Sequence record: AF322020.1
DNA from: a phage
Length of the DNA stretch: 531 nt
Direction: 5' to 3' (one strand)
The notes beneath the pieces are model-generated. The model saw only the letters and a list, made by a program, of their open reading frames with translations, did not search any database and had not been told where the DNA came from. Positions 1-368 of the stretch are shown one piece after another; within the stretch, counting starts at the first letter, position 1; every line of letters starts with the position of its first letter. The position numbers and the translations under genes were made by a program.

Positions 1-6
1 AGGAGG
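1..6 (+). promoter_or_regulatory. Shine-Dalgarno-like AGGAGG hexamer; relevant only if the source is prokaryotic or organellar
   Basis: Seen directly: aggagg at 1-6, followed by taac and ATG at 11-13 (4-nt spacer, shorter than typical). A second purine run, gaggag at 17-22, lies 7 nt upstream of an ATG at 30-32. Both downstream ORFs are only 8-9 codons long. Confidence 0.15.
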
Positions 7-10
7 TAAC

Positions 11-37
11 ATGCAAGAGGAGAATTGGGATGTGTAA
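11..37 (+). other. 8-codon mini-ORF (MQEENWDV) whose TAA stop overlaps the first in-frame ATG of the longer ORF (taATG at 35-39)
   Basis: Hand translation: atg caa gag gag aat tgg gat gtg taa. The stop at 35-37 shares its last base with the ATG at 37-39, which is in frame with the 25-240 ORF. This is a coupling-like geometry but cannot be told apart from chance at this length. Confidence 0.12.
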
Positions 38-253: not shown

Positions 254-257
254 CTGC

Positions 258-275
258 GCTTAGTGGTACACAAGT
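258..275 (+). repeat. Degenerate copy of the 18-nt motif (gcttagtggtacacaagt)
   Basis: 13/18 ungapped identity to 303-320, with the shared core cttagtg...acaag. This is weaker than the other three copies. Confidence 0.45.
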
Positions 276-302
276 AGAACGCCTAGGAAGCGCTAGGGCA
301 CG

Positions 303-320
303 CCTTAGTGTTGGACAAGG
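303..320 (+). repeat. Copy 2 of the 18-nt motif (ccttagtgttggacaagg)
   Basis: 16/18 identical to 61-78 and 15/18 to 373-390. Confidence 0.8.
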
Positions 321-323
321 TGA

Positions 324-336
324 TTGCCTTAGGCAA
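324..336. other. 13-bp interrupted palindrome TTGCCT-T-AGGCAA (core gccttaggc, contains CCTNAGG)
   Basis: Seen directly: ttgcct (324-329), t (330), aggcaa (331-336); the two arms are reverse complements. Confidence 0.8.
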
Positions 337-368
337 CCGTTTAGGGCTTACACAGGCCGTTTTAGGGC
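337..368 (+). repeat. Pair of direct repeats CCGTTTAGGGC (337-347) and CCGTTTTAGGGC (357-368), each containing TTAGGG
   Basis: Seen directly. Both exact TTAGGG hexamers in the window lie here, at 341-346 and 362-367, with the same flanks (ccgtt...c). A related CTAGGG sits at 293-298, and CCTAGG, CCTTAG and GCTTAG variants occur between 258 and 332. Confidence 0.8.

Follow-up and report, generated by a model that had tools for sequence, protein, structure and literature searches.

We analyzed a DNA stretch of 531 nucleotides (sequence record AF322020.1, here referred to as the window) in which a first-pass annotation had described a block of degenerate TTAGGG-like repeats at positions 257–368. 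The window represents the genome end of Escherichia phage K1E, which had been sequenced before and whose biology is known, and not a eukaryotic telomere. In a blastn search against a phage collection, positions 1–407 corresponded to the last 408 bases of K1E (AM084415, 44844–45251) with 99.8% identity. The left end of the K1E record matched from position 121 on, through the low-quality tail of the read. In a plasmid collection nothing matched beyond a 36-nt stretch of gyrA, a chance similarity. K1E is an SP6-like coliphage (Autographiviridae, Molineuxvirinae, Vectrevirus) with a linear record of 45,251 bp. According to taxonomy and annotation of the record it encodes an RNA polymerase (gp7), and all 62 coding sequences are located on the + strand.

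The two ends of the K1E record, 1–288 and 44964–45251, are identical without a single mismatch and in the same orientation, and form a direct terminal repeat (TR) of 288 bp. Based on the junction alignment the window consists of the right-unique end of K1E downstream of the endosialidase gene (1–120; AM084415 44844–44963), one copy of the TR (121–407) and the left-unique region (408–531; K1E 289–412). Since a single TR copy is located between right-unique and left-unique DNA, the arrangement is that of a concatemer-type junction. A reconstructed junction of this kind and the whole window were identical at 521 of 532 positions, the mismatches being Ns and one gap. The only difference among the 532 aligned positions that does not involve an N is a T missing at position 333, where the window reads CCTTAGG and the K1E record CCTTAGTG in both TR copies. 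The base was probably lost in base calling; the TR therefore measures 287 nt here and 288 bp in the record. We are highly confident that bases 257–368 are the interior of the 288-bp TR of K1E, read across a concatemer junction. Mapping to the source genome, the check which the first-pass annotation had itself named, placed the read on this phage junction.

It has to be set against the concatemer reading that the template for a read across a single-copy junction could have been a concatemer, a clone, or the result of template switching at a run-off end. All Ns of the window lie within its last 103 bases (429–531), with an onset about 20 nt past the genome terminus at 407, and in the tail they fall on the G/T following CTTA. 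This pattern could reflect ordinary read decay or, alternatively, a read that ran off the physical end and then gave a weaker signal by template switching to the left repeat copy in cycle sequencing. The positions of the ends were taken from the deposited record; that they are fixed, not permuted and generated by a terminase cutting concatemers sequence-specifically appears plausible from the conserved boundary sequences and from the general mechanism.

The CTTAG(T/G) repeat at the K1E genome ends

Every motif listed for the block was found by direct reading of the window, all on the + strand. These are CGCTTAG (257–263), CCTAGG (282–287), CTAGGG (293–298), CGCCTTAG (301–308), CCTTAGG (327–333), CCGTTTAGGGC (337–347, holding TTAGGG at 341–346) and CCGTTTTAGGGC (357–368, holding TTAGGG at 362–367). 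The described G-skew of the + strand is real as well: between about 151 and 420 the GC skew has positive values, and the TR (121–407) has a G:C ratio of 102:70 and a ratio of G-runs to C-runs of 13:3. Within the window alone the motifs are present at chance level. TTAGGG was found twice versus 0.55 expected (22 of 200 shuffles reached two copies), CTTAG three times versus 1.83 (49 of 200 shuffles) and CYTAGG three times versus 1.09 (25 of 200). The two TTAGGG hexamers are 21 nt apart and lie within unrelated sequence, and the K1E genome holds six copies of TTAGGG per strand. TRF detected no telomere-type tandem array in the window, but only three copies of CTCGCC (122–139) and two copies of an 8-mer (387–402).

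Significance is reached only by the CTTAG core, and only when the genome context is considered. In the first 720 bp of K1E, 17 copies of CTTAG are present on the + strand versus 0.95 expected (Poisson P=4.8e-16) and none on the − strand, whereas the background in K1E is 1.3 copies per kb per strand; the strand split of 17:0 has a P of 1.5e-5. The 250-nt bin K1E 251–500 contains 11 copies versus a mean of 0.35 per bin. Three copies are located in the TR at window positions 259, 304 and 328. A phased array of eleven copies is found at K1E 361–484, with spacings of 24, 11, 13, 12, 7, 5, 11, 13, 10 and 13 nt, and three further copies precede the TR by about 150 nt (K1E 44797, 44818 and 44830). The first four copies of the array start at 480, 504, 515 and 528 of the window once its Ns, which mask a G/T, are resolved from the K1E record (480–531). 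The motif thus runs on into the low-quality tail, as had been supposed. The end-associated copies extend to CTTAGTG; the base following CTTAG is T or G in 22 of 23 of them, compared to 21 of 41 copies elsewhere in the genome.

We compared the junctions of 15 SP6-like phages, comprising Vectrevirus, Zindervirus and a Klebsiella phage; 14 junctions were aligned (alignment A1). All 15 junctions, which belong to Molineuxvirinae, carried 8–17 copies on the + strand and at most one on the − strand. The spacing pattern was nearly identical across the 15 phages, with 98 of 121 intervals measuring 10–13 nt, and the array began 50–100 nt right of the TR.

Within and next to the TR, a repeat finder grouped four copies of about 20 nt (CCTNAGTGTTGNACAAGGTG) at 61, 258, 303 and 373 into one family, D1. 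The leftmost, CCTCAGTGTTGTACAAGGAT, is opened by a mutated copy, CTCAG (62–66), and the corresponding CCTCAG (61–66) reads CCTTAG in the phages LF31P3, PhiNW-E1, T147P1 and P433.1. Copy 1 in the TR (GCTTAGTGGTACACAAG, 259–263) keeps its position in the K1E subclade. It is followed by CCTAGGAAGCGCTAGGG (282–298), a block conserved in Vectrevirus which holds two C-TAGG variants of the motif. Copy 2 (CCTTAGTGTTGGACAAGGTG, 304–308), the reference copy of D1, and copy 3 (328–332; CCTTAGTG in the record) are nearly invariant in position in Vectrevirus. The motifs that resembled telomeres are intact or decayed (CTAGG, tTTAGGG, CTGAG) copies of this phage-lineage repeat, CTTAG(T/G), on the + strand. 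The fallback interpretation of the first-pass annotation, a telomere-unrelated repeat with a CTTAG(G) core reaching into the tail, was essentially correct.

Both TTAGGG hexamers can be followed through the relatives in alignment A1. The first belongs to TTTAGGG (340–346), a degenerate CTTAG copy. The sister phages of K1E read CTTAGGG here and the K1-5 clade reads CTTAGTG; in K1E, a CTTAG copy has lost its C. The other hexamer (362–367) is specific for the K1E subclade and is limited to five of the 15 phages, and the K1-5 clade reads ATTCAGGG instead. Only the GG at 365–366 is invariant at this site. SP6 and UAB78 carry one CTTAGGG each, placed differently. The hexamers are lineage-specific variants and not a conserved unit, and the conserved core is CTTAG(T).

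Conserved architecture of the terminal repeat and its boundaries

Four blocks of the junction stand out by strong conservation in alignment A1. Just left of the TR a near-invariant block, AACCAAAGTAAAAATTTTGATATAGGCGTGTGTCAGC, is located at 82–118. This segment (AACCAAAGTCAAAATTTTGATATAGGCGTGTGTCAGC) was at least 70–90% conserved in every sequence covering it, in three genera, and exceeds the TR interior in conservation. It may represent the recognition context for cleavage or packaging of the left end. The left terminus itself consists of TCTCGCC followed by the CTCGCC repeats (121–139; three copies at 122–139 according to TRF) and is invariant in 14 relatives. It forms a conserved block (121–157) in which the TR start TCTCGCCCTCGCCCTCGCC is followed by a CCCCATA(T)GGG palindrome. 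In K1E the palindrome reads CCCCATATGGGG (146–157), with CCCCATA..GGG being invariant, and is the counterpart of CCCCCATAGGGGG in the T7 TR.

Further to the right, the CTTAG-bearing stretch at about 280–335 is conserved within Vectrevirus. A CTGAG variant of the repeat (a D1 copy) together with the right-terminal block TTGACAGGGTGTGAGGGTGTGGGCT makes up 374–406, where conservation within the TR is highest. This part hardly varies among the 14 sequences, SP6 and a Klebsiella phage among them, and SP6 matches the TR only there. The string TTGACAGGGTGTGAGGGYGTGGGCT-ATCTGTT-CGTTT (382–418) is invariant even in SP6 and IME184. It contains ATCTGTT (407–413, + strand), known as a class II pause and termination signal of T7-type RNA polymerase, which straddles the right TR boundary, as the TR ends with A407. 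The heptamer was invariant at this boundary in 14 of 14 SP6-like sequences, and in the K1E genome the + strand holds two copies (288 and 4580). By an end-identity test the TR measures 288 bp in K1E, 234 bp in K1-5, 174 bp in SP6 and 160 bp in T7.

Both K1E boundaries are cut just 5' of TCT with GTGTG in front, namely GGCGTGTGTCAGCTC^TCTCGCC (116–127) and GGGTGTGGGCTA^TCTGTTC (402–413). The T7 boundaries read GACTA^TCTCAC and TCCCT^ATCTGTT for comparison. This arrangement may reflect a common cleavage context of the terminase. The deposited record of UAB_Phi78 opens (1–20) 17 nt upstream of the conserved terminus TCTCTCGGCC with TAGGCGTGTGTCAGG, which is right-unique flank in the other phages; judged from this, the deposited TR boundaries of UAB_Phi78 are probably shifted relative to SP6.

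Possible functions of the junction and of the CTTAG copies

In T7-like phages, replicated linear genomes can pair through their redundant ends and recombine, giving concatemers with one repeat per junction, and the terminase cuts sequence-specifically at the TR boundaries, the second repeat being resynthesised in packaging (PMC3350473, PMC10438801). The TR of K1E would undergo the same concatemer formation, boundary cleavage and repeat resynthesis, and the strict conservation of the boundary elements suggests that its junction works as in T7. In work attributed to Lyakhov (1997) and to Zhang and Studier (2004), the processing of T7 concatemers reportedly needs the polymerase paused at the junction signal. 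Likewise, the phage RNA polymerase would pause at ATCTGTT in the K1E junction during concatemer processing. In the literature this heptamer is described at the T7 concatemer junction as the class II signal at which T7 RNA polymerase pauses or terminates; termination, unlike pausing, needs a downstream U-run. Since ATCTGTT is followed by CGTTTCG in K1E and not by a T-run, a pause appears more likely than termination.

The CTTAG copies could provide phased sites for a phage-encoded DNA-binding protein that would mark the junction for cutting and packaging. We tentatively consider them candidate binding sites, most likely for the small terminase K1E gp39, although we would give this proposal somewhat less than an even chance. 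It is suggested by the restriction of the copies to one strand, by a phase and positions which are kept while the spacers diverge, and by the same layout being present in T7 with a different motif.

Several points weigh against these assignments. The copies inside the TR are, taken alone, only modestly enriched (3 versus 0.38 expected, P=0.007). The TR interior including 257–368 is the least conserved part across genera. Because SP6 and IME184 keep just one copy there, the copies inside the TR may be dispensable. A phase of 12 bp compared to a helical repeat of 10.5 bp does not imply simple binding to the same face of the helix. The literature searched assigned no function to the CTTAG copies and gave no confirmation that the K1E or SP6 RNA polymerase pauses at ATCTGTT. 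Furthermore, we know of no experiment assigning a function to the CCTAAAG arrays of T7.

The copies might have no sequence-specific task at all, having arisen when non-coding end DNA, whose main task would be to supply length and homology, was locally duplicated or underwent slippage, with recent common ancestry keeping them alike. Large indels in the TR interior among close relatives and TR lengths ranging from 174 to about 305 bp would fit such an origin, as would the decayed K1E copies (CTCAG at 62, tTTAG at 340 and possibly CTTAGG at 328) and the lack of any fold, RNA family or promoter signal tied to the CTTAG copies. We nevertheless consider it unlikely, given the strand bias of 17:0, the phase of about 12 bp and a spacing that is kept from Vectrevirus to Zindervirus and the Klebsiella phage despite diverging spacers. 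In T7 a different heptamer is independently arranged in this layout, and neutral drift would preserve neither the strand nor the phase of a motif in two subfamilies. Slightly less probable still is a relation to host promoters, by which the copies would be weak promoters, decoys or UP-like modules on the leading end that enters first and is pulled in by the E. coli RNA polymerase. The motif does abut the −35 hexamer of a predicted early sigma-70 promoter in K1E (TTTAGTGTTGACA at 707–720, with TACATT 17 nt downstream and 10 of 12 matches). CTTAGTGTTGACA is found at the early sigma-70 promoter of K1-5, SP6 and mutPK1A2; the early sigma-70 promoter reads (C/T)TTAGTGTTGACA. The TR segments 304–339 (CTTAGTGTTGGACAAGGTGATTGCCTTAGTG...) and 373–392 (CCTGAGTGTTTGACAGGGTG) resemble this promoter, and a 2026 preprint describes the T7 concatemer junction as a context-dependent E. 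coli promoter. However, a consensus scan gave no promoter-like site in K1E 1–670, which covers TR and array, the array copies have neither a TTGACA nor a −10 partner, and some copies sit at the right end, which is about 44 kb away from the end that enters the cell first.

The combination of phased copies on one strand and a G-rich 3' strand would also be compatible with an end-recognition code that is read by a phage protein other than the terminase, either in the duplex or on a 3' tail. Such a protein would protect, pair or process the genome ends, the 3' single strand being exposed in replication intermediates. We regard this as improbable; if true, it would be an analogue of telomere binding that evolved separately in the T7 (CCTAAAG) and SP6 (CTTAGTG) lineages. 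As to the telomere itself, the first-pass annotation had favored a eukaryotic subtelomeric or interstitial TTAGGG-family sequence with the chromosome end to the right. Two exact TTAGGG hexamers do lie on the G-rich strand, and to the right there is indeed a chromosome end: the K1E terminus at 407 is 39 nt beyond position 368, and the G-rich strand is the 3'-ending one at this right terminus. The direction of the end was thus anticipated, but the end is that of a phage and not of a eukaryote. With K1E as the source, no tandem array, a chance-level count, hexamers which are not conserved among close relatives and are missing in most of them, and a conserved core of CTTAG(T) instead of TTAGGG, the eukaryotic reading is wrong to a degree that leaves it hardly any probability.

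A protein-coding or structured-RNA nature of the region is nearly as improbable. K1E gp48 is annotated at 25–240 of the window (AM084415 44868–45083), extending 120 nt into the TR, and some relatives have hypothetical protein calls over the junction. However, gp48 ends before 257 and no open reading frame (ORF) longer than 28 amino acids overlaps 257–368. In the closest relatives the gp48 frame is either closed by the TAG of the CTTAG copy at 62–66, where K1E has CTCAG, or shifted by a 22-nt indel, as in PhiNW-E1 and T147P1. As far as the reading frames of these relatives indicate, gp48 of K1E is probably not a gene. A search of the window against all Rfam families (E≤10) returned matches at chance level only (best E=3.4), a tRNA/tmRNA scan of the window found none, and the z-scores for single-strand DNA folding of the TR and of 257–368 were unremarkable (−0.92 and −1.77). 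A conserved G-quadruplex was also rejected: a four-run motif with loops of up to 9 nt was found in two of the 15 SP6-like repeats and was absent from K1E despite its many G-runs. An inverted repeat at 323–331/363–371 is broken in mutPK1A2.

K1E has 13 SP6-type promoter-like sites with the consensus ATTTACTGGACACTATAGAAG, all on the + strand, 11 of which carry the exact core ACACTATAG. We rejected the possibility that TTTAGGG, which resembles ATTTAGG in the SP6 promoter, is a relic of such a phage promoter. With a weight matrix built from the 11 exact-core promoters, the 13 K1E sites exceeded 23 bits, and no site in K1E 1–720 scored higher than −5.3. The sites span 6833–41726, and the last one with an exact core, at 41726, is located about 3.2 kb upstream of the TR; K1E has no counterpart of the T7 phiOR near the junction. 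A sigma-70 promoter scan of TR and array gave no promoter-like site before K1E 671, and an intrinsic terminator scan of the same regions gave one weak hairpin on the − strand, within chance expectation. The early promoter of K1E is predicted as TTGACA-17-TACATT at 715–743. The TR segment 304–339 (CTTAGTGTTGGACAAGGTGATTGCCTTAGTGCAACC) resembles, in degenerate form, the early promoter region (K1E 698–743; K1-5 602–636). In the A1 promoter region of T7, CTTAAAG adjoins the −35 hexamer.

At the left margin of the window (1–37) a strong Shine-Dalgarno sequence, AGGAGGT, with an ATG at position 11 opens an ORF of only 8 codons (ATG CAA GAG GAG AAT TGG GAT GTG TAA). In K1-5 this ribosome-binding site serves a 43-codon 'gp49', of which the K1E ORF seems to be a truncated remnant.

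The sequence and the general biology were already in literature and databases. What is gained for the annotation are the K1E junction features in window coordinates, namely the TR boundaries, ATCTGTT and the CTTAG array.

Comparison with other phage ends and with telomeres

The TRs of SP6, K1-5 and K1E are alike in their start TCTC(G/T)C..GCC, in the CCCCATA(T)GGG palindrome and in the terminal block TTGACAG.GTGTG.GGG.GTGGGCT. All three phages carry ATCTGTT at the boundary and CTTAG inside the TR as well as on both flanks. SP6 and K1-5 differ from K1E in the length of the TR and, by large indels, in its interior, and the pair of TTAGGG hexamers is peculiar to the K1E subclade. Compared to its sister phages, K1E has a T in place of the C of CTTAGGG.

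The more distant T7 shares the layout. Its TR starts with TCTC, contains the palindrome CCCCCATAGGGGG (C5-ATA-G5) and three motif copies, and is G-rich in its second half. ATCTGTT is found at the right TR boundary and nowhere else on the + strand of T7. The heptamer in K1E is identical to the class II signal of the T7 RNA polymerase, is located on the non-template (+) strand and is preceded by T406, a position at which A, C or T are allowed. The deposited T7 TR ends 1 nt before the A of ATCTGTT, whereas the TRs of K1E, K1-5 and SP6 end on that A. The T7 motif is CCTAAAG instead of CTTAGTG; it is present three times in the TR, eight times after the TR at multiples of 13 nt and twice before the right-hand TR. 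These short repeats were reportedly named SRL and SRR by Dunn and Studier in 1983. In total, 16 of 22 + strand copies of CCTAAAG fall within 400 nt of one or the other genome end (left end P=3e-17), with intervals of 13, 25, 13, 13, 54, 13 and 26 nt. The phase is about 13 nt in T7 and about 12 nt here, and the T7 array begins 15 nt past the TR compared to 50–100 nt here. Between the ends of T7 and K1E no sequence homology was detectable beyond the short shared elements. The layout is analogous and the motif lineage-specific.

Eukaryotic telomeres of the types (TTAGGG)n, (TTTAGGG)n and (TTTTAGGG)n resemble the K1E end in the G-rich 3'-ending strand adjoining the end of a linear chromosome. A eukaryotic telomere is not implied when an anonymous read shows a G-rich block resembling TTAGGG; here such a block marks the TR of a linear phage genome. 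Unlike telomeres, K1E has no tandem array and no telomerase; its hexamer is unconserved, present at chance level and carried by a phage, and its end would be generated when the terminase cleaves concatemers.

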